Shown here in pieces: positions 11,341 through 48,123 of a stretch of 64,000 nucleotides of DNA. Below the pieces are notes generated by a model. That model made no database searches, was not told the origin of the DNA, and worked only from the letters and a program-made list of their open reading frames with translations. This DNA is from Candidatus Staskawiczbacteria bacterium (GTDB taxonomy: Bacteria; Patescibacteriota; Minisyncoccia; Minisyncoccales; Staskawiczbacteraceae). Made by a program: the position numbers and the translations under genes. The DNA is taken from the NCBI GenBank assembly GCA_963778905.1, contig CAVZWH010000014.1:1254-65253 (forward strand), read 5' to 3'. Positions within the stretch are counted from its first letter, which is position 1; each line of letters opens with the position of its first letter.

Positions 11341-12106
11341 GGCTCTAGACTAGCAGTCTGTCATGGTATAATGACAAAATGTTAGTAAATAGTCTCAAAA
11401 ACTCTAAATTATCGACATTTAAAATTAAAAAAATTATTGAACACTTTTGTTTGGATATTAACGCCTCCAAAGCAGCTCCTCTGGTGGGCGTAAATCGCAA
11501 CACGATAAATTACTGGTACAACAGATTTCGTGTGGCAATTTATGCTCATCAGCACAAAGAATTTGAAAAGATTTTCGGAGAAGCGGAAGTGGACGAATTA
11601 TATTTCGGAGCAAGACGCAAACGCGGATTCCATGGCAAGCTGAAACGCGGACGAGGCACGCAGAAGCAACCGGTGTTCGGAATACTGAAACGCAACGGAC
11701 ATGTTTACACAGAAATCGTCCCTAACTGCAAAAAAGACATTCTGCAAAGCATTATCAGAGGGAAAGTAGATAAATCAGCAGTAATTTATTCGGACAGCTG
11801 GCGTAGCTATGACGGACTTGTTGATGTAGGATACGACAAACATTTCAGGGTTAATCACGGAGACAATGAATTTGCAAGGAAAGGTACAGGTATTCACATC
11901 AACGGCATTGAAAATTTCTGGAGCTTCACCAAACGTCGACTGGCTAAATTTAATGGTGTAAAAAAGAATTTCGAACTGCATCTTAAAGAGTTCAGAGTGG
12001 CGCTACGGAAAAACAAATGATACAATGAAAAAAGAATTGTGGAAAATTATTAAAAAATATTATTAAATTAATCGGCTACTTTGACTAGTCTTGCTAGTCT
12101 AGAGCC
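11341..12106 (+). mobile_element. IS1595-family insertion sequence (766 bp)
   Basis: Terminal inverted repeats GGCTCTAGACTAGCA (11341-11355) and TGCTAGTCTAGAGCC (12092-12106). TTAATTA lies on both flanks (11334-11340 and 12107-12113). Single DDE transposase ORF. Confidence 0.8.
11379..12020 (+). CDS. IS1595 (ISXO2-like DDE) transposase, C-terminus apparently frameshifted
   Basis: 213 aa with candidate DDE residues in EVDELYFG, IYSDSWRSY and NGIENFWS. An extended -10 (TGGTATAAT, 11364-11372) ends 6 nt before the ATG. See the finding on the 3' frameshift. Confidence 0.8.
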   Translation: MLVNSLKNSKLSTFKIKKIIEHFCLDINASKAAPLVGVNRNTINYWYNRFRVAIYAHQHKEFEKIFGEAEVDELYFGARRKRGFHGKLKRGRGTQKQPVFGILKRNGHVYTEIVPNCKKDILQSIIRGKVDKSAVIYSDSWRSYDGLVDVGYDKHFRVNHGDNEFARKGTGIHINGIENFWSFTKRRLAKFNGVKKNFELHLKEFRVALRKNK

Positions 12107-12142
12107 TTAATTAATATAATGTAATTTAGAAAATTTTGAAAC

Positions 12143-14935
12143 TTATGTCAAGTTTTTAAGATATTTTCCCGTGTAGCTGTTTTTAATTTTTGCGATGTCA
12201 GCTGGCGTGCCTTCTGCCACAATGTTTCCGCCCGCATCGCCGCCTTCGGGGCCCAAATCAATTAACCAATCAGAATTTTTTATCAAATCCAAATTGTGCT
12301 CAATCACCAAAACAGTATTTCCTTTTTCAACCAATCCCGCCAAAACAGAAATTAACTTTTTTATGTCGTCAAAGTGCAAACCGGTTGTCGGTTCGTCTAA
12401 AATATATAAAGTTCTGCCGGTTCCTTTTCTGGAAAGTTCTGTTGCCAATTTTACTCTCTGCGCTTCTCCGCCAGACAAAGATGTGGCCGATTGCCCAAGC
12501 GAAACATAAGACAAGCCAACTTCTTTCAAGGTTTTCATTTTTTCATAGAGGCCCGGAATATTTTTGAAAAATTCCATTGCTTCTTCAACTGTCATTTCCA
12601 AAACCTCGGCAATGTTTTTGTCTTTGTAAGCAATTTCTAAAACTTCTTTGCTGTATCTTTTGCCATGGCATTCCTCGCATTCAACATAAATGTCGGGCAA
12701 AAAATACATTTCAACTTTTTTCTGACCCTGGCCTTCGCAAGCCTCGCATCTGCCGCCTTTTACGTTAAAACTAAATCTGCCAGCTGAATATCCGCGGACT
12801 CTTGCCTCTTTTGTTTTGGTAAAAATATCTCTTATATATGAAAATGCTCCGGTATATGTTGCCGGGTTTGACCTTGGAGTTCTGCCAATCGGCGACTGGT
12901 CAACTAAAACAACTTTATTTAAATTTTCAATTCCCAAAATTTCTTTATGTTTTCCCGGCTCATCTTTTGCCCTGTAAAATTTTCTTAACAATGACTTTGC
13001 TAAAATATCATTTACCAAAGACGATTTTCCGGAACCGGAAACTCCGGTCACGCAAACAAATTTTCCTAAAGGAATTTTTACGTCAATATTTTTTAAGTTA
13101 TGTTCTTCTGCTCCTTTTATGACCAAAAATTTGGCAACGTCGGACGTAGCCTTTTTTATTTTTGGTTTATCAATTTCAACTTTTTTTCTGCCAGATAAAT
13201 AGTCGCCTGTAAGCGTATGAGCTTTCAATATTTCTTTGTACATTCCTTCAAAAACAACTTTTCCTCCGTGCTTTCCAGCTCCCGGCCCAATATCCACAAT
13301 CCAGTCAGATGCCCTCATTGTCTGAGGATCATGTTCTACGACAACAACAGTATTTCCCAATTCTTTTAATTTTATTAATGTGTCTATTAATTTATGCTGG
13401 TCTCTGGCATGCAAGCCGATTGACGGCTCGTCTAAAATATATAAAACTCCTGACAATTTTGAACCAATTTGAGTTGCCAATCTTATTCTTTGCTCTTCTC
13501 CGCCGGCCAAAGTTCCGGCTTTTCTGGACAAAGTCAAATAAGAAAGACCAACGTCATTCAAAAATTGCGTGCGGTCAATTATTTCTTTTGTAATCGGCTG
13601 ACTAACTTTTGTTTCGCCGGCATTTAGTTTTGCAGGAAGTTTTTCAAAAAATTCTTTTACTTTATCAACGGGAAAATCAACAATTTTATCAATAGATAAA
13701 TCAGCAACAGTCACTGCCAAAACTTCCTGCTTTAATCTTTTGCCTTGACACTTCGGACAAATTTTGATTACCATATATTGCTCAATTTCCTGGCGGGTCC
13801 AATCAGAATCTGTTTCATGATATCTTCTTTCCAAATTTGGAATCACTCCCTGAAATTCGCCGTCTCCGTGCAAAATAATATCCACAATTTTCTTGGGTAA
13901 ATCTTTTACTTCTTCATCCAAAGAAAAATTATATTTTGCCGCCAAGCCGGAAAGAATTGAGTAATAATATCCCTGCCTGCCAACTTTATGGGAAGCCCGC
14001 GACCACGGCCAGATAGCTCCTTCGGCAATTGTCAATCTTTTATTTGGAATTACTAATTCCGGATCAACTTCCAATTTTTCGCCAAGACCTGTGCATTCAG
14101 GGCAAGCTCCATAAGGATTGTTAAAAGAAAATAATCTTGGCTCTAATTCTGGCAAGGAAATTCCGCAATCTTCGCAGGCAAAATGCTCTGAAAAAATTAA
14201 GTCTTCTTTTTTAGAATTTACAATCACAATTCCTTTACCGAGGCGAAGAGCAATTTCCAAAGAGTCAACTAATCTTGACCTGTCCAAGTCTTTATCTAAA
14301 ACTAACCTGTCGGCGACAACTTCTATGTCGTGCTTTTTTTGTTTATCTATTGGCTTTTCCAGAGATTCTTCAACCGGAAAAATCGTCCCATCAATTCTCA
14401 CGCGGACAAATCCTCCTCTTTGAATTTCTTCCAATACTCCATAGTGCTCTCCTTTTTTGCTTCTGATAACCGGCCCTAAAATTGTAATTTCAGATTTTTT
14501 GGGTAATTTCAAAACTTGGTCAACAATCTGATCAACTGTCTGCCGCGAAATTAACTTTCCGCAATTTGGGCAGTGTGGTTTTCCAATTCTTGCATACAAA
14601 AGGCGCAGATAATCATAAATTTCTGTGATTGTGCCAACTGTTGAGCGCGGGTTATGGGTTGATTTTCTCTGGTCAATGGAAATTGCCGGCGAAATTCCTT
14701 CAATTTTATCAACATCCGGCTTATCCATAACTCCCAAAAACTGCCTGGCATAAGCTGACAAACTTTCAACATATCTTCTCTGGCCTTCGGCATACAAAGT
14801 ATCAAAAGCTAAAGAAGACTTTCCAGACCCAGAAAGCCCGGTAATTACAATCAATTTATTCTTCGGCAAATCTAAATCTATATTTTTTAGATTGTGAACT
14901 CTTGCGCCTCTAATTTTTATATATTCATTTTGCAT
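12143..14935 (-). CDS. uvrA: excinuclease ABC subunit A
   Basis: 930 aa; two ABC modules ([27 protein letters not shown]), zinc-finger cysteines and canonical UvrA N-terminus ([14 protein letters not shown]). Confidence 0.98.
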
Positions 14936-15015
14936 TGCAAAAAGTTTAGTGGTTCATTATACAACTTTTTTATATCGGGCGCAATAGCCACGCACACATG
15001 CAAATCATAAAATTT

Positions 15016-16062
15016 TTAAGAAACGTTAATCCAAAATCTATTTTTGAAATAATGCTGAATTTTGTGTGTATTGGCATGGGACAGAAATCCAAGATATGAC
15101 TGCAACGATTGGAGAAGCGAATTTCTGGAAATAAGTCCTTGATTGTATTTTTTTATTCTTGATTCAAATTTTTTTATAATTCTCTTTTTTGTTTTTGTTC
15201 TGACCAATCTATGCTTTTGAAAAACTACATAGCCAAGAAAATCTATTCCTTGGCTCGTTTTTCGTATTTTTGTTTTCTCTTCGTGAATTTTTAACAAAAG
15301 ATTTTCTTCTAAGAAATCTATTATTTGCGGCACAAGATTTTCTAAATATTTTCTATTTTCCGAAAGTATCAAAAAATCGTCTGTATAGCGAAGATAATAT
15401 TTTACTTTTAGTTCTTGTTTTATAAATTTATCAAGCTCGTTTAGATAAATATTGGCAAAAAGCTGAGAAGTTAAGTTTCCAATAGGAACTCCTTTATTAA
15501 TGCCCAACACAGAATAACTTGACGAAAAGCTTGATATAATCTGCTCTAAAAGCCAAAGTGTATCATTCTCCTTTACTTTCTTTTTTAAGATTGTGAGCAG
15601 AACATTATGGTCTATTGTGTCAAAAAACTTTTTAATGTCGCACTTCAGAGAAAAGCATGAAACCTTATTATTTTTGCTTACTTTTCTTAATATGCTTTGC
15701 AAAAAATCCACTCCTTTATGAGTGCCGTAGCCCTCCCTGCAAGAAAAAGATGCGGAGATAAAGCCAGCTTCAAAGATGGGATTTAGAACCTGGAAAACAG
15801 CATGGTGCAAAATGCGGTCTAAAACTTGCGCCTTATGGATGTTTCTTGGCTTCGGGTCTGAAATATTAAAAGAAATGTAATTTGAATGTTTGTAGGTTTT
15901 GCTTTTTAGCTCTCTGTGCAGTTTAAATATATTTTCTTCAAGGTTCCATTCAAAAAGCTGAACATCTTTTTTGTTTCTTTTGCCGTTTTTAAATTTATCC
16001 CAGGCTAAAAATAGGTTCTCTGAAGAAGTAATCTCGCTAAATAGGTCTCTATAAATCTTCAT
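15016..16062 (-). CDS. DGR-type reverse transcriptase
   Basis: RT motifs including YTDDFLIL, plus the DGR-diagnostic IGNLTSQLFANIYL motif ([ILV]GxxxSQ). Start moved to Met19 (MKIYRDLF...), because the longer ORF would overlap the divergent avd start. Confidence 0.9.
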   Translation of the reverse strand: MKIYRDLFSEITSSENLFLAWDKFKNGKRNKKDVQLFEWNLEENIFKLHRELKSKTYKHSNYISFNISDPKPRNIHKAQVLDRILHHAVFQVLNPIFEAGFISASFSCREGYGTHKGVDFLQSILRKVSKNNKVSCFSLKCDIKKFFDTIDHNVLLTILKKKVKENDTLWLLEQIISSFSSSYSVLGINKGVPIGNLTSQLFANIYLNELDKFIKQELKVKYYLRYTDDFLILSENRKYLENLVPQIIDFLEENLLLKIHEEKTKIRKTSQGIDFLGYVVFQKHRLVRTKTKKRIIKKFESRIKKYNQGLISRNSLLQSLQSYLGFLSHANTHKIQHYFKNRFWINVS

Positions 16063-16091
16063 AATAAAAAAATAACTAATTAATAAAAAAT

Positions 16092-16445
16092 ATGACAGAA
16101 GAATTTGATATACCAATATTTAAAAAAGTTTATGATTTGTATAAAACGTTTTATGCTTTCAGGACTACGGTTCCAAAACAAGAAAAATATACTGTCTGGC
16201 AAAAATCTGAAAATCTGATTTTGGAAATCTTGGAAGGGATATTATCGGCCAGCTATAAACATAAATTTGAGAAAACTCCCATATTAGAAAAAACTAGTCT
16301 AAAGCTTAATGTCCTCCGTGTTCTTATCAGGCTGATGAAAGATATTAAAGCAATCGATAATAAAAAGTATTCCTTGTTAGAGGAAAACATAGATGAAATT
16401 GGAAGGATGCTTGGCGGATGGCTGCGATCCACCGTCAGCAGATAG
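16092..16445 (+). CDS. avd: four-helix-bundle protein, Avd-like DGR accessory protein
   Basis: 117 aa, all-helical, ends ...EIGRMLGGWLRS as in Avd/23S-IVS four-helix-bundle proteins. Lies between TR and RT but on the opposite strand. Confidence 0.75.
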   Translation: MTEEFDIPIFKKVYDLYKTFYAFRTTVPKQEKYTVWQKSENLILEILEGILSASYKHKFEKTPILEKTSLKLNVLRVLIRLMKDIKAIDNKKYSLLEENIDEIGRMLGGWLRSTVSR

Positions 16446-16452
16446 ATTCAAT

Positions 16453-16490
16453 ATTACAAAAGGCATTCAAAAATGAATGCCTTTTGTAAT
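16453..16490. other. perfect 17-bp hairpin 13 nt downstream of the TR (minus-strand sense)
   Basis: ATTACAAAAGGCATTCA-AAAA-TGAATGCCTTTTGTAAT. No T-run on either strand, so it is not an obvious intrinsic terminator. It occupies the position of a DGR spacer RNA structure. Confidence 0.5.
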
Positions 16491-16502
16491 TGGTGAGGAG
16501 AG

Positions 16503-16650
16503 ACTTCGGGGCGAAGAACGACGAGGAGCCATAGTTGTCGTTGGCATTGTCGACATACTTCGTGTCGAACTTGACCTTGCCGTCGTTGAAGTTGAAGTAC
16601 GGAGCGTGGTCAAACTGGCCCGAGCCATCATCGCAAAATTTGCCTTTATC
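16503..16650 (-). repeat. DGR template repeat (TR)
   Basis: Ungapped alignment to 17070-17217 at offset 567. 27 of 28 mismatches fall where this copy has A on the minus strand. Confidence 0.9.
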
Positions 16651-16930
16651 CATCCTTGGGTTTGAAGTACTAATTAAAATTAGTACTTCAAACCCTTACA
16701 CTGGATATAGAGGTTTACTTCTGCGTTAGCAAACTATATCCTCTCAATCCTGTATTTTATTCGACGGCATTTCTTAAAAAAGAAAACCCGCCACAGATAA
16801 GGCAAGCAGTATCTCCCCAAGACAACGCGCTCTTTGCATCCGTGAACGCAAAGACTCTGGTTGTTTTATGAAAAGAGAGTTCGGTGACAGTCATCCTTAA
16901 ACAACTGTTCATTAACCTAATCTCAAATCA

Positions 16931-16958
16931 AGTATACACAAAATATATTTTTTTGCAA
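16931..16958 (-). promoter_or_regulatory. candidate sigma70 promoter for the TR-containing transcript
   Basis: On the minus strand: TTGCAA, 16 nt, TATACT. Overlaps the T-tract of the target-gene terminator. Confidence 0.3.
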
Positions 16959-16996
16959 AAAAAAGATGGCGTTGTCTGCAGAGCAAACAACGCCAT
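16957..16996 (-). terminator. rho-independent terminator of the DGR target gene
   Basis: On the minus strand: ATGGCGTTGT-(11 nt)-ACAACGCCAT followed by T8. Confidence 0.6.
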
Positions 16997-17067
16997 GTGC
17001 CGCGAACGAAAGGTTCAAGGAATAAGAATTCGAAAGAACCAAGCGTTCGAAGCTTGAGGAACAGGTT

Positions 17068-17979
17068 TTACTGCGGGGCGAAGAACGACGAGGAGCCATA
17101 GCGGTCGTAGGCAATGCCGACATACCCCGTGCCGAACCCGACCTCGCCGACGCGGAAGAAGAAGCACGGAGCGCGGCCAAACCGGCCCGAGCCATCATCG
17201 CAAAACTCGTCGCCAGCGCAATCGATGTCCAGCTCTTCCCAGCGAACGAGTCGCTCGGGATGAGTCAGGATAATGGAACCGACTGCGAGACTGGTGAGGC
17301 CGAACTCGTTGGTCTTAAAGACCTCGCGAGCCCGACGTACCGAACGTCCGCGGTGGCGCATGCCGAGCTGACCAGCGATGATCAGGATGTCGCCCTTTTG
17401 CGTTTGGGTGATCTGATTGATCATCTGTGCCGTGCGAGTGTGAACTCGCAGGTGAGCCGTGTCGATCTGGCCTTGGCGGTAGTTGTAGAACGACCGCGAA
17501 CCAGCGACCTTCTCGTGAACCAGTTGGACAGCGCGGCAGTACTTCTCGGTCGGGTCTTTGACCTCCGGGAAAAACCTGGAAGCCAAAGCATCAACCGACG
17601 GAATGGCGAACCATCCTTCGGCGCCTTCAGGAAGTTCGGGAAGATTTTTCGCGAACTCAAGGGCTTGACTCGGGTCGAGGTTGAAGATCGCGGCAAGTGC
17701 CTTGATCTGCGCCTCGATCTGCTTGGGCCCCTTGTACTCCTTGGGGTACGTGTAGCTGGAACAAACTTCTTCGTTCTTGAACCTGTCGGTGAGACAATTC
17801 TCGGCGATGAAGCTGCTTACCAGATCGGAAAGACCCGGAGCTTCGTTAACTCGCTGAGATTCCTCCTCGGACAGTCCGGCCTTGTTGTAGGCAGCCTCGA
17901 CAACCGAGATGAACTTGAGACCCTTTGGGTCCCGAGCTGTAACAATAGACGGAGCCAATGTCGTAGACATCGGAGCCAT
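17068..17979 (-). CDS. DGR variable (target) protein, family unknown
   Basis: 303 aa; GGAGAAAGG Shine-Dalgarno; the C-terminal roughly 49 codons are the VR. No signal peptide seen, no domain recognised by eye. GC is far above the window background. Confidence 0.85.
   Translation of the reverse strand: MAPMSTTLAPSIVTARDPKGLKFISVVEAAYNKAGLSEEESQRVNEAPGLSDLVSSFIAENCLTDRFKNEEVCSSYTYPKEYKGPKQIEAQIKALAAIFNLDPSQALEFAKNLPELPEGAEGWFAIPSVDALASRFFPEVKDPTEKYCRAVQLVHEKVAGSRSFYNYRQGQIDTAHLRVHTRTAQMINQITQTQKGDILIIAGQLGMRHRGRSVRRAREVFKTNEFGLTSLAVGSIILTHPERLVRWEELDIDCAGDEFCDDGSGRFGRAPCFFFRVGEVGFGTGYVGIAYDRYGSSSFFAPQ
17070..17217 (-). repeat. DGR variable repeat (VR)
   Basis: See the TR entry. This is the 3' end of the target ORF and abuts its stop codon. 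Confidence 0.9.
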
Positions 17980-18066
17980 CCTTTCTCCGCGTCAAACGCG
18001 GTTTAACAAAGTGCATGTTGCGAAAGCCTGCAACTGGGCAACCAAACACTCGTTTAGTATGAATAT

Positions 18067-18095
18067 ATTATATCAAATGGACACACTCTTGTCAA
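18067..18095 (-). promoter_or_regulatory. consensus sigma70 promoter upstream of the DGR target gene
   Basis: On the minus strand: TTGACA (18095-18090), 17 nt, TATAAT (18072-18067), about 85 nt upstream of the ATG at 17979. Confidence 0.6.
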
Positions 18096-18139
18096 TGATT
18101 TTGACTTGAAAAATTGCCAATTTATGTTAATCTAAAAAC

Positions 18140-19444
18140 ATGGATAAATTCAAATTTCTGCCGAAATCAAAACTCAACAACCTCCCGAAAACAAGCGGAG
18201 TATATTCTTTTTATGATAAAAAAGAACTTGTTTATATTGGCAAGGCAATAAATATACAAAACAGAGTTAAAAACCACTTTCATCGGGTTAAATACCGCGA
18301 AGCGGTAATTTCGCCTTCGGCGAAATTATTTAACCCGATGAAGCAACCGTCTTACAGAGATGATTTATTTATAGAAAAAGTAAATAAAATTAGTTTTTTT
18401 GTGACCAATTCAGAAATTGAAGCGTTAATTTTGGAAGCAAATTTAATTAAAAAATATCAGCCAAAATTCAATGTTGTCTGGCGAGATGATAAAAATTATT
18501 TTTATGTGGCGATAACAAAAGGCGAAAAGCCGATTGTTTATATAACACACCAAAAAAATGAGCCGGCAGAATACATTGGACCTTTTGTGGAGGGAAATGC
18601 CTTAAAAAAAACTTTAAGGTTTTTGAGAAGAGTGTTCCCCTACTACACAACAAAAAATCATCCTAAAATAAAATGCACCTATTGCCATTTGGGTTTATGC
18701 CCGGGGCCAAATCCAAATTTAACAGAATACAAAAAAAATATAAAAAAATTAATTTCTATTTTGCAGGGAAAAAGAAATGCTGTTTTAAATTCTCTAAAAA
18801 AAGAAATGAAAAAACTTTCAAGAGAGAACAGATTTGAGGAAGCTGGAAAAATTAGGGACAGAATTTTTAATTTACAGCAGGTAATGTCGCACACAAATGT
18901 AATCAGCAGCGAAAAAGTTAGTGCGAGGTCGGATCTCGCCCAAATTTTAGGCAAGATTCTGCATATGGAGAATAAAATAGAAAGAATTGAGTGTTATGAT
19001 GTTTCCAATATCCAGGGAAAATCTGCAACCGGGTCCATGATTGTTTTTGCAGATGGAAAACCAGATAAAAGTCAGTACAAAAAATTTAAGATAAAAATGG
19101 AAAATGAACCGAACGACATCGCTATGTTAAAAGAAGTGCTGGAAAGAAGATTTGCGCATCCAGAATGGAAATATCCCGAGGTAATTTTAATAGACGGCGG
19201 AATCGGCCAACTAAACGTTGGCCTCAAAATCAAAAATCAAAATCCAAAAATCAAAAATATTTTATTTATATCTTTGGCGAAAAGAAACAAAGAATTATTT
19301 ATTGAGGGCAAGCAAAAACCAATTTTGTTAAAATCTTTGCCTCAAGAAATTTATAATCTGATTTTGCAGCTTGACGACGAAGCGCATAAATTCGCAATAG
19401 CTTACCACAAAAAACTAAGAAGTCGGGATTTATTATTGCACTAA
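18140..19444 (+). CDS. uvrC: excinuclease ABC subunit C (short form, no C-terminal HhH domain visible)
   Basis: 434 aa; GIY-YIG (GVYSFYDKKELVYIGKA), UVR domain (RFEEAGKIRDRIFNLQ) and endonuclease domain (IECYDVSNIQG, ILIDGGIGQL). Contains a 20-codon palindromic insertion. Confidence 0.9.
   Translation: MDKFKFLPKSKLNNLPKTSGVYSFYDKKELVYIGKAINIQNRVKNHFHRVKYREAVISPSAKLFNPMKQPSYRDDLFIEKVNKISFFVTNSEIEALILEANLIKKYQPKFNVVWRDDKNYFYVAITKGEKPIVYITHQKNEPAEYIGPFVEGNALKKTLRFLRRVFPYYTTKNHPKIKCTYCHLGLCPGPNPNLTEYKKNIKKLISILQGKRNAVLNSLKKEMKKLSRENRFEEAGKIRDRIFNLQQVMSHTNVISSEKVSARSDLAQILGKILHMENKIERIECYDVSNIQGKSATGSMIVFADGKPDKSQYKKFKIKMENEPNDIAMLKEVLERRFAHPEWKYPEVILIDGGIGQLNVGLKIKNQNPKIKNILFISLAKRNKELFIEGKQKPILLKSLPQEIYNLILQLDDEAHKFAIAYHKKLRSRDLLLH
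18281..18340 (+). repeat. 60-nt in-frame palindromic insertion inside uvrC
   Basis: CATCGGGTTAAA..TTTAACCCGATG forms a 12-bp outer stem. It encloses CCGC-GAA-GCGG and TAATTTCGCC-TTC-GGCGAAATTA hairpins. Encodes HRVKYREAVISPSAKLFNPM. Confidence 0.65.
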
Positions 19445-28159: not shown

Positions 28160-28354
28160 ATGTGCTATTTTTGCCAAAAAAATATTGACGACATAGATTT
28201 CAAAAACACAGAGATGCTATCTCGTTATGTTTCTAGTTTTTATAAAATAAAACCAAGAAAAAAAACAAATCTGTGTAGCTATCATCAAAAAAAGATTGCA
28301 GTTGCAATCAAGCGCGCCCGTCAGATGGGCTTAATGGCCTATGTTCCAAAATAA
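28160..28354 (+). CDS. rpsR: 30S ribosomal protein S18
   Basis: 64 aa; CYFC...IDFKN...LSRYVS...AIKRARQMGLM. Confidence 0.85.
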   Translation: MCYFCQKNIDDIDFKNTEMLSRYVSSFYKIKPRKKTNLCSYHQKKIAVAIKRARQMGLMAYVPK

Positions 28355-28355
28355 A

Positions 28356-28382
28356 CAAAAAGCCCCCAATTGGGGGCTTTTT
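28356..28382. terminator. bidirectional terminator
   Basis: AAAAAGCCCCCAATTGGGGGCTTTTT perfect palindrome between rpsR and recA. Confidence 0.7.
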
Positions 28383-28384
28383 GT

Positions 28385-29386
28385 TTATTCCTTAACCTTA
28401 ATCGCTTCTTCCTTTATCAGTTTCATAGCCTCTGGATGTTCTTTCAAATATGTTTTTGCCCCTTCTGTCCCCTGCCCAATTTTTTCTGCTCCAATAGTAA
28501 AGTAGCTTCCCGATTGTTTAATTATTCCTGAAGTTAATCCAGCTCTCAAAGCATCTCCTGATTTTGAAATTCCTTCGTTGTAATAAATATCAAATTCTGC
28601 GGTTTTGAAAGGAGCGGCAACTTTATTTTTTACAACTTTTGCTTTTACTCTGTTTCCAATAATTTCGTCTCCTGATTTTATTTGGGCGGTTCTGGCCAAA
28701 TTAATTCTTACCGAAGCATAAAATTTTAATGCTAATCCGCCGGGCGTTGTTTCTGGATTTCCAAAAACCATTCCAATTTTCATTCTTGTCTGGTTCAAAA
28801 ATATAACCATCGTATTTGTTTTCGCCATAACTGCGGAAAGTTTTCTGCACGCCTGCGACATTAACCTTGCCTGCAAACCCATGTGCTGGTCGCCAATTTC
28901 TCCTTCAATTTCCCTCTGCGGAGTTAAAGCTGCGACAGAGTCCACAACAATTACGGCGATTGTTCCTGTTTTTACAAGGGTTTCAACAATCTGCAAAGCT
29001 TGTTCTCCGGAATCCGGCTGGGAAATTAGCAAATCATCAACATCAACGCCAATTCTTCTGGCGTAATCCGGATCCATTGCGTGCTCGGCATCAACAAATG
29101 CGCAAGTTCCTCCTTTTTTTTGCGCTTCAGCTAAAACATGCAAAGACAAAGTTGTTTTGCCGGAAGATTCTGCTCCGTATATTTCTATAATTCTGCCTCT
29201 CGGCATTCCGCCAACGCCCAAAGCCATATCCATTGCAATAGAGCCGGTAGGAATTACATCAACATTAACTGCGTGGATTTCCCGCATTTTCATAATCGCT
29301 CCCTCGCCAAATCTTTCTTTTATCTCATCAATAGCGCTATTCAACGCTTTATTTTCTTTTTTTTCTTTTTTATTTTCTTTTACCAT
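28385..29386 (-). CDS. recA: recombinase A
   Basis: Canonical RecA ([32 protein letters not shown]). Start moved to MVKENKK..., which removes the overlap with ftsK. Confidence 0.97.
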
Positions 29387-31634: not shown

Positions 31635-31690
31635 TAAATTACTCTATTATACCACTCACATTTTTTCCTTCAAGGCGGTTTTTACACAAC

Positions 31691-31719
31691 AAAAAACCAA
31701 GCAATTTGCTTGGTTTTTT
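31691..31719. terminator. terminator downstream of rpoC
   Basis: AAAAAACCAAGCA-ATT-TGCTTGGTTTTTT. Confidence 0.65.
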
Positions 31720-31726
31720 GTTCTTA

Positions 31727-47346: not shown

Positions 47347-47419
47347 TGTTAATTTGTGGCGGTAGAAGTCCAGCTGGACTTCTACCGCGATATTATTTAA
47401 TCGCAAACTTCTAACGGGG
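47290..47419 (-). mobile_element. MITE-like element, copy C1 (130 bp), inside the 5' end of a pilin gene
   Basis: TIRs CCCCGTTAGAAGTTTG / CAAACTTCTAACGGGG; TAAA direct repeats at 47286-47289 and 47420-47423; 100% identical to copy C2. Confidence 0.7.
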
Positions 47420-48050: not shown

Positions 48051-48123
48051 TGTTAATTTGTGGCGGTAGAAGTCCAGCTGGACTTCTACCGCGATATTAT
48101 TTAATCGCAAACTTCTAACGGGG
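47994..48123 (-). mobile_element. MITE-like element, copy C2 (130 bp), inside the 5' end of a pilin gene
   Basis: Same sequence as C1; TAAA direct repeats at 47990-47993 and 48124-48127. Confidence 0.7.

Follow-up and report, generated by a model that had tools for sequence, protein, structure and literature searches.

A conserved and structured leader RNA precedes the template repeat of a diversity-generating retroelement in Candidatus Staskawiczbacteria

Gene order of the cassette

The window analysed here is the whole 64,000-nt stretch at positions 1,254 to 65,253 (forward strand) of contig CAVZWH010000014.1 from Candidatus Staskawiczbacteria bacterium (GenBank assembly GCA_963778905.1). 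It contains a diversity-generating retroelement (DGR) in which the template repeat (TR) is preceded by a conserved structured leader RNA, apparently an undescribed feature of a whole clade of these elements. Read along the minus strand from 18095 to 15016, the cassette is composed of a target gene ending in the variable repeat (VR), a terminator, a promoter-like site, the leader, the TR, a hairpin, an inverted avd gene and the gene of the reverse transcriptase (RT) (Table 1). It is located on the chromosome between uvrA (12143..14935) and uvrC (18140..19444). The motif (I/L/V)GxxxSQ in the RT is a hallmark of DGRs. Here it occurs together with an Avd protein, a TR and VR which are 85% identical over 136 nt with 21 of 21 mismatches at TR adenines, and a VR (17205→17070) inside the open reading frame (ORF) 17979→17068, where it occupies the 3′ end of the target gene; the locus is therefore a DGR. 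A Pfam search gave no recognisable domain in the target protein. About 290 nt are non-coding between the promoter-like site and the TR. All sequence features listed in the original prediction were found in place, apart from the spacing of VR and TR, given there as ~370 nt and measured here as 431 nt.

The inversion of avd between TR and RT had been regarded as atypical wiring, but it is the norm of the clade. Architecture B3, the order TR-(avd)-RT in which avd is reversed, accounts for 90% of the DGR set of the candidate phyla radiation (CPR) (Wu et al. 2018, PMC5758913). In total 160 related loci (80 from genomes and 80 from metagenomes, labelled L001-L160) were collected, 148 of which have enough upstream sequence for the orientation to be counted; avd is inverted and directly upstream of RT in 144 of these 148 and on the same strand in none. 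The start codons of the two genes (16062 and 16092) are divergent and, as predicted, 29 bp apart, which is on the large side: the gap has a median of 3 bp among relatives and is within ±5 bp in 66 of 124 loci, many of the small-gap loci reading CATATG, i.e. two start codons back to back. The TR could be located in 97 loci, with the VR upstream on the same strand in 85 and a median VR-to-TR spacing of 379 nt (interquartile range 355-409). Homologues of the RT number in the thousands, and those with an organism name belong to Patescibacteria, Candidatus Staskawiczbacteria being the closest named. Gene order and orientation are those of the CPR-type DGRs of architecture B3 (PMC5758913), which correspond to DGR clade 2 of Roux et al. 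2021 (PMC8144416); the patescibacterial host, the chromosomal location and a target protein without recognisable domain are also shared, and no difference in gene architecture was found. The locus is a standard chromosomal DGR of the CPR/Patescibacteria type, and its gene layout by itself is ordinary and already catalogued. The leader RNA, its long-range duplex and the head-to-head starts with 0-5 bp are not mentioned in the published descriptions of CPR-type DGRs searched, the coverage of which was incomplete.

Table 1 Features of the DGR cassette in the window
Feature	Position	Strand	Description
DGR reverse transcriptase (RT)	15016..16062	-	348 aa, ATG at 16062, Pfam RVT_1 3e-25, motifs PIGNLTSQ and YTDD
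avd (accessory variability determinant)	16092..16445	+	117 aa, ATG at 16092, Pfam bAvd 1.2e-18; inverted relative to TR and RT
avd/RT head-to-head gap	16063..16091		29 bp, AT-only
Post-TR hairpin	16453..16490		17-bp stem, 4-nt UUUU loop; arms 16453-16469/16474-16490; 7 nt from avd stop codon
Template repeat (TR)	16503..16638	-	136 nt, 85% identical to VR
TR 3′ boundary and tail strand of long-range duplex	16494..16505	-	AGU-C-UCUCCUCA
Palindrome insertion	16658..16695		Perfect 18-nt arms 16658-16675/16678-16695; ~39-nt lineage-specific insertion between leader and TR
Leader RNA	16696..16925	-	~230 nt, ~10 helices, two capped by UACG/UAAG tetraloops
Terminal long interrupted helix of leader	16703..16750	-	Includes the stem 16703-16741 of the original prediction, in another register
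Internal hairpin of leader (helix 6)	16786..16807	-	GGCGG..UUUCUU-UUUU-AAGAAA..CCGUC; labelled terminator-like by scanner
Leader strand of long-range duplex	16808..16819	-	UGGGGAGA-U-ACU, then conserved GCUUGC at 16807-16802
Candidate promoter of DGR RNA	16931..16958	-	TTGCAA-16-TATACT; -10 box kept in relatives
Intrinsic terminator of target gene	16957..16996	-	14-bp stem (16996-16966) plus T8; same position filled in relatives
Conserved non-coding element 3′ of VR	16998..17067	-	22 nhmmer hits; candidate target-recognition region
Variable repeat (VR)	17070..17205	-	136 nt, 3′ end of target gene
DGR target gene	17068..17979	-	303 aa, no Pfam hit; 54-63% GC in 200-nt windows, genome ~32% GC
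Consensus promoter of target gene	18067..18095	-	TTGACA-17-TATAAT with TG; 12/12 hexamer matches

A structured leader RNA upstream of the TR

When the window is aligned with its eight closest relatives (RT identity 69-84%), the non-coding DNA which runs from TGAGATTAGG (~16925) up to the TR is conserved above the level of the proteins. The conservation starts just downstream of a -10-like box which follows the target-gene terminator and which was seen by eye in nearly all of 43 relatives; this backs the candidate promoter TTGCAA-16-TATACT, predicted to overlap that terminator and found at 16958-16931. A sequence profile (nhmmer) matches the leader in 73 loci, and a covariance model of 235 positions and 65 pairs, named R1, finds it in 121 of the 160 loci, always on the RT-sense strand and just upstream of the TR. 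Within the 64 kb of the window R1 has a single match (16696-16925, 198.9 bits), and in the sequence searched the leader was seen only beside DGR TRs.

The pairing is well supported by substitutions. RNAalifold returned 37 pairs, 29 of them with compensatory changes. In the seed alignment of 43 sequences 90.9% of the cells of the 65-pair structure can pair, compared with 39-49% when the partners are slid, and the number of double-change cells is 517 compared with 83-135, a value that none of 500 shuffles reached. For a test set of 49 non-seed sequences, the alignment of which was fitted to the model structure and so favours it, the corresponding values are 88.9% vs 41-47% paired and 887 vs 122-241 double-change cells, with double changes in 60 of the 65 pairs. 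The strand of the leader is fixed because many G-U pairs are conserved. A fold prediction covering the TR and the hairpins (minus strand, 16930→16440), as had been proposed, gave z = -9.2 against shuffles.

One stem of the original prediction, at 16703-16741, belongs to the last helix of this ~230-nt RNA. The two arms GGATATAG (16703-16710) and CTATATCC (16734-16741) are complementary as had been noted, but the register was wrong, since the minimum-energy fold and the covariation favour GAGG 16743-16740 with CCTC 16713-16710 and GGAT 16750-16747 with ATCC 16706-16703. In helix 6, seven of ten pairs change on both sides; the site 16807-16786 had also been considered as a leader attenuator, which was ruled out as it is an internal co-varying hairpin. 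Several single-stranded motifs are invariant (GCUAAUG, CCAGAGU, CGAAUAAAAU, GGAUAUA and GUAAACC), and a long conserved single strand, CGAAUAAAAUACAGG, lies in the 3′ half of the leader. A 51-aa ORF at 16757-16912 was rejected as an explanation of the conservation, since indels are not multiples of three and changes in the stems are compensatory.

A scan of 15900-17300 against Rfam release 15 at E up to 10 returned only chance-level matches to miRNAs and snoRNAs at E of at least 0.04, and the matches at the gathering score in the whole window are five tRNAs. The leader is described neither in Rfam nor in the CPR and DGR literature searched.

Two further observations concern this RNA. In three loci (L003, L028 and L016) a partial second copy of the 5′ motif of the leader (GCTAATGAACGG or GCTAATGGAGG) is present ~40-50 nt before the leader begins, which points to a local duplication. 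An independent assembly of the same strain as the window (Logan ERR11523660; L161, outside the 160 loci) has at 16853 a U-G pair in place of a C-G pair of the leader.

Pairing of the leader with the 3′ boundary of the TR

When each leader was tested by RNAduplex against the TR 3′ end and tail of its own locus, the same leader columns were repeatedly selected across clades with differing sequences. In the window 16819-16808 pair with 16505-16494 (Table 1). In other clades the complementary strands are, for example, GAGAGGAGACUUCUU with CGGAAGUCUCCCUUUUC, GGGAGGCGACACUUCG with CUGGAAAUUUCGCCUCCC, AGAGACAAAACUACUU with CGGUAGUCUUGUCUCC and AAUAAAGAUA with UAUCUUUAUU. The own partner was compared with the tails of other loci by 10,000 permutations: the pairing energy is -15.6 with the own and -11.6 kcal/mol with swapped partners in 36 loci, and -14.7 vs -11.5 kcal/mol in 38 non-seed loci, and in neither case was the own-partner mean reached by a permutation. 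The leader strand lies 300-350 nt upstream of its partner at the TR 3′ boundary and runs into a conserved ACU-nCUUGC, which reads ACUUGGUGC in distant relatives. The central part of the leader thus forms a co-evolving duplex with the boundary and tail at the 3′ side of the TR, by which the rest of the leader and the TR are enclosed in one large loop.

The hairpin behind the TR

Each strand of the hairpin at 16453-16490 reads GGCATTCA-loop-TGAATGCC and then TTTTGT. T-runs had been thought to be missing here; they are present on both strands and paired with an A-tract as in the genome's own terminators, and those at 28350-28389 (between convergent genes) and 31688-31722 have the same shape of a perfect palindrome with paired A/T tracts. 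The hairpin is situated between the convergent avd gene and the TR unit. A terminator scanner made no call at this site because the T-tract is paired within the stem. In per-sequence folds, 56 of the 65 loci in which 25 nt or more separate the TR from the avd stop codon have a hairpin with a stem of at least 7 bp; its stem has a median of 13 bp, its loop mostly 3-6 nt, and it starts a median of 15.5 nt past the TR and ends a median of 2 nt from the avd stop codon. The ends of the arms contain 5.5 T and 4.95 A per 10 nt (3.3 expected), and many stems consist of an A-tract, a GC core and a T-tract. Column-wise covariation is not feasible because loop lengths shift the register between clades; in the near clade compensatory stem changes are seen in L085 and L086. 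By shape and position the hairpin is a putative terminator, at which the DGR RNA as well as the convergent avd transcript would end.

The hairpin had also been placed where the spacer of the Bordetella phage DGR begins. This is borne out and can be made more exact: its position is that of Sp3-33, the Avd-binding stem-loop of Bordetella with an 11-bp stem and a UNCG tetraloop (Handa et al., bioRxiv 10.1101/2023.10.23.563531), and by this analogy the hairpin is probably also an Avd-binding stem-loop. Whether it might be this alone, with no termination and an RNA that runs on past it as in Bordetella, has to be weighed. Putative Avd-binding stem-loops just downstream of the TR were reported for 207 of 278 Avd-containing DGRs, CPR included (bioRxiv 10.1101/2023.10.23.563531), and in the near clade the stem is nearly invariant while the loop varies. 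However, the stems are perfect and without the flipped-out bases described for Bordetella, their sequences differ wholly between clades though Avd is conserved, and next to the closeness of the avd stop codon about half of the loci have A- and T-tract flanks (five or more per 10 nt at both ends in 29 of 56 relatives). Termination and Avd binding do not exclude each other, and a role in Avd binding only is unlikely.

Expression of avd and RT

The original prediction assumed that neither gene has room for its own promoter in the gap, so that the avd promoter would have to lie inside the RT gene and RT might be read from the TR transcript through antisense avd. The first part fits the small gaps of 0-5 bp and the codon usage near both starts. 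Synonymous-codon identity is 0.73 in RT codons 1-10 (~0.45 otherwise); in avd codons 1-20 it is 0.72 and 0.63 (~0.55) among close relatives and 0.58 (~0.44) among more distant ones. These values fit expression signals of RT and avd that each lie within the first codons of the other gene. On the opposite strand, the N-terminal codons of RT (M-K-I/T-Y-K/R) read TTATAAAT ~10 nt upstream of the avd ATG (16040-16062, 16092-16150; small-gap loci). Taken together the starts hint at very short or absent 5′ untranslated regions for avd and RT. In distant relatives (RT 46-51% identical; L053, L060, L064, L067, L068, L073, L075-L077, L079 and others) the avd-RT gap is wider and contains 9-11 consecutive G, in most cases with TAATAT behind them, perhaps as a promoter element or as a tract prone to slippage.

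The second part, an RT without promoter of its own that is translated from a long TR transcript passing through the hairpin and antisense avd, with the hairpins as structural brackets and not as terminators, is quite improbable. It would suit an avd-RT gap too small for a full promoter plus leader, the short U-tract of the window hairpin, the frequent absence of a separate post-TR hairpin in distant relatives and the established fact that TR and brt lie on one strand in the Bordetella phage. Against it stands a hairpin which is shaped like the bidirectional terminators of the host and abuts the avd stop codon, and two of the three supposed brackets are not conserved hairpins (see below). Moreover, in avd codons 81-117, i.e. 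the antisense RNA just past the hairpin, synonymous identity is 0.38-0.59 and no higher than in the remainder of the gene. The absence of extra constraint lends no support to a TR-RT co-transcript and argues against a Bordetella-like spacer RNA hidden in antisense avd, a candidate that was dropped for this reason. The higher identity of avd codons 1-20 agrees with the presence of RT expression signals in this part of the gene, and the poly-G and TAATAT box in the wider gap of distant relatives suggests an RT promoter of its own. As a whole the sequence data argue against a TR-RT co-transcript.

Insertions and further features of the cassette

The TR had been described as bracketed by hairpins. 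The downstream one is conserved in position, whereas the 18-bp stem upstream is a private insertion and the third stem is part of the larger leader RNA. The insertion of ~39 nt at 16658-16695 adjoins the TR in the window and is absent from all eight of the closest relatives aligned; it is present in the second assembly of the strain (L161). No second copy of the 18-bp stem was found in the window or in the 160 loci, which ruled it out as a repeated element. Unrelated palindromic insertions occur in close relatives, in the avd-RT gap (L081:3404-3501), in the leader (L090:2188-2542, L086:222-478, L089:184-506) and upstream of the leader (L083), which suggests frequent hairpin-forming insertions in these genomes. 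Elsewhere in the window two identical perfect palindromes of 30 nt (GCGGTAGAAGTCCAG/CTGGACTTCTACCGC) lie 704 bp apart at 47359-47388 and 48063-48092.

Straight after the VR and the stop codon ~70 nt are conserved on the minus strand (16998-17067), with repeated TTCGAA and CTTGAAC motifs. The 22 nhmmer hits of this element stand directly after the VR wherever the VR was mapped, including a locus with the VR on the other side of RT (L031); another locus (L021) has two copies, the second ~1 kb from the mapped VR. The element may be the region of target recognition (initiation of mutagenic homing, IMH, or cruciform-like). A conserved ATGGATAAAGG is found just 5′ of the TR/VR homology (16639-16655, minus strand) and in the TR reading frame, yielding a 72-aa ORF at 16435..16653.

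Over 12081-19062 the two assemblies of the strain are 99.9% identical with seven differences. Four of these form a cluster in the target gene (17848-17855) outside the VR, in which the assemblies do not differ. The body of the target gene has 57% GC compared with ~32% in RT and avd (15016-16445) and in the host (window), and the means over 68 related loci are 52% for the target gene and 35% for RT and avd. The excess extends outside the VR, so that DGR mutagenesis alone is no explanation for it.

Comparison with known systems

The RNA of the Bordetella phage BPP-1 DGR consists of the avd 3′ end, the TR and a spacer (Sp) of 140 nt, and its template:primer duplex is formed by TR117-129 and Sp47-56 (Handa et al. 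2018, PMC6182149; bioRxiv 10.1101/2023.10.23.563531). Three likenesses to the RNA proposed here can be listed. A stem-loop with tetraloop follows right after the TR as Sp3-33 does, a match by position and shape only. A duplex covers the TR 3′ end, as does TR117-129/Sp47-56. The 3′ half of the leader, by inspection only, has the order of Sp47-139, i.e. duplex strand, short stem-loop, long conserved single strand and long interrupted stem-loop. In contrast to BPP-1, the partner strand and all the remaining structured RNA are on the 5′ and not on the 3′ side of the TR. Non-coding RNA 3′ of the TR is limited to a 12-nt tail, the hairpin and 7 nt, after which antisense avd begins, and the ~100 nt of further functional RNA past the stem-loop of BPP-1 (primer strand, stop duplex, thumb ring and RT-binding stem-loop) have no counterpart there. 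In addition avd is inverted, and sequence similarity was not detected.

Like retron msr-msd RNAs, the element has its structured RNA on the 5′ side of the template, a duplex that closes the molecule by pairing the 5′ strand with sequence just 3′ of the template (a2/a1), and a conserved G near the end of the 5′ strand (here in GCUUGC). It differs from retrons by an RT with the DGR hallmark IGxxxSQ and by the presence of Avd, TR/VR and adenine-specific mismatches. It is thus not a member of the retrons, and the topology, read here from sequence, serves only as a working analogy. The RNA motifs RT-1 to RT-19, presumably all included in Rfam, differ from the leader as no Rfam match was obtained in the scan of 15900-17300. 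They are likewise structured RNAs beside bacterial RT genes and include one proposed DGR member; Weinberg et al. 2017 (PMC5737381) place RT-10 of BPP-1 between TR and brt.

Proposed model

A DGR RNA composed of leader, TR, 12-nt tail and hairpin would be made from the promoter at 16958-16931. The hairpin would end both this RNA and the convergent avd mRNA and would probably bind Avd as well. RT and avd would be expressed from divergent signals in each other's first codons, with no TR-RT co-transcript. The leader would supply in cis the elements for docking of RT/Avd and for initiation which the Bordetella phage DGR has in the spacer 3′ of the TR; by analogy it is regarded as a functional stand-in for the Bordetella spacer RNA that has moved 5′ of the TR. 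To this reading as a whole, a standard CPR DGR with a leader-TR-tail-hairpin RNA, divergent embedded signals for avd and RT and a leader in the role of the Bordetella spacer, we assign a probability of roughly 70%. The strands of the duplex run in the direction needed for a leader nucleotide to act as primer on the 3′ end of the TR. A tentative extension, which we hold to be possible but short of an even chance, is that CPR DGRs have a circularly permuted, retron-like RNA in which the leader recruits RT-Avd, the duplex sets the initiation site and priming starts from a leader nucleotide in ACU-nCUUGC (16810-16802).

Several points weigh against the model. All RNA ends were deduced from sequence, and binding of RT/Avd by the leader as well as the priming site are postulated by resemblance. 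Shared ancestry remains in the swap tests of the duplex. The column-wise count of the duplex is moderate (70% paired vs 45-61% slid in a MAFFT alignment), the signal being weaker because the tail is poorly aligned. The favourable bias of the fitted non-seed alignment of the leader and the incomplete coverage of the literature belong here too. The window hairpin has only a short U-tract (UUUUGU), so that transcription might pass beyond it into antisense avd and RT. Among the more distant relatives there are 26 with a TR that reaches right up to the avd stop codon, and a hairpin of at least 7 bp is present there in just 8; termination at the post-TR hairpin is therefore not universal.

A leader that acts as a cis-regulatory RNA (riboswitch or attenuator) for transcription or stability of the TR, and not as a scaffold for RT-Avd docking and priming, is very unlikely: its 5′ position, the many invariant single-stranded motifs and the internal hairpin with a U-run, called a terminator by the scanner, would suit such a role, but this U-run is itself paired in helix 6, the central strand co-varies with the TR 3′ boundary 300-350 nt downstream, which suits template positioning better than attenuation, and the leader has no Rfam match and was seen only beside DGR TRs in the sequence searched.

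Significance for DGRs of Patescibacteria

A large clade of DGRs, with thousands of RT homologues, carries a multi-helix RNA upstream of the TR, whereas the only characterised DGR keeps its essential spacer downstream. Pipelines for DGRs and comparative studies of their RNA which are confined to ~40 nt before and 100 nt behind the TR would miss the leader. Should the leader prove to be the functional counterpart of the spacer, it would be a concrete and testable RNA for the reconstitution of a CPR DGR, and the RNA topologies of DGRs and retrons would be linked. Its placement would also explain the B3 architecture, that is the inverted avd right behind the TR in thousands of Patescibacteria.

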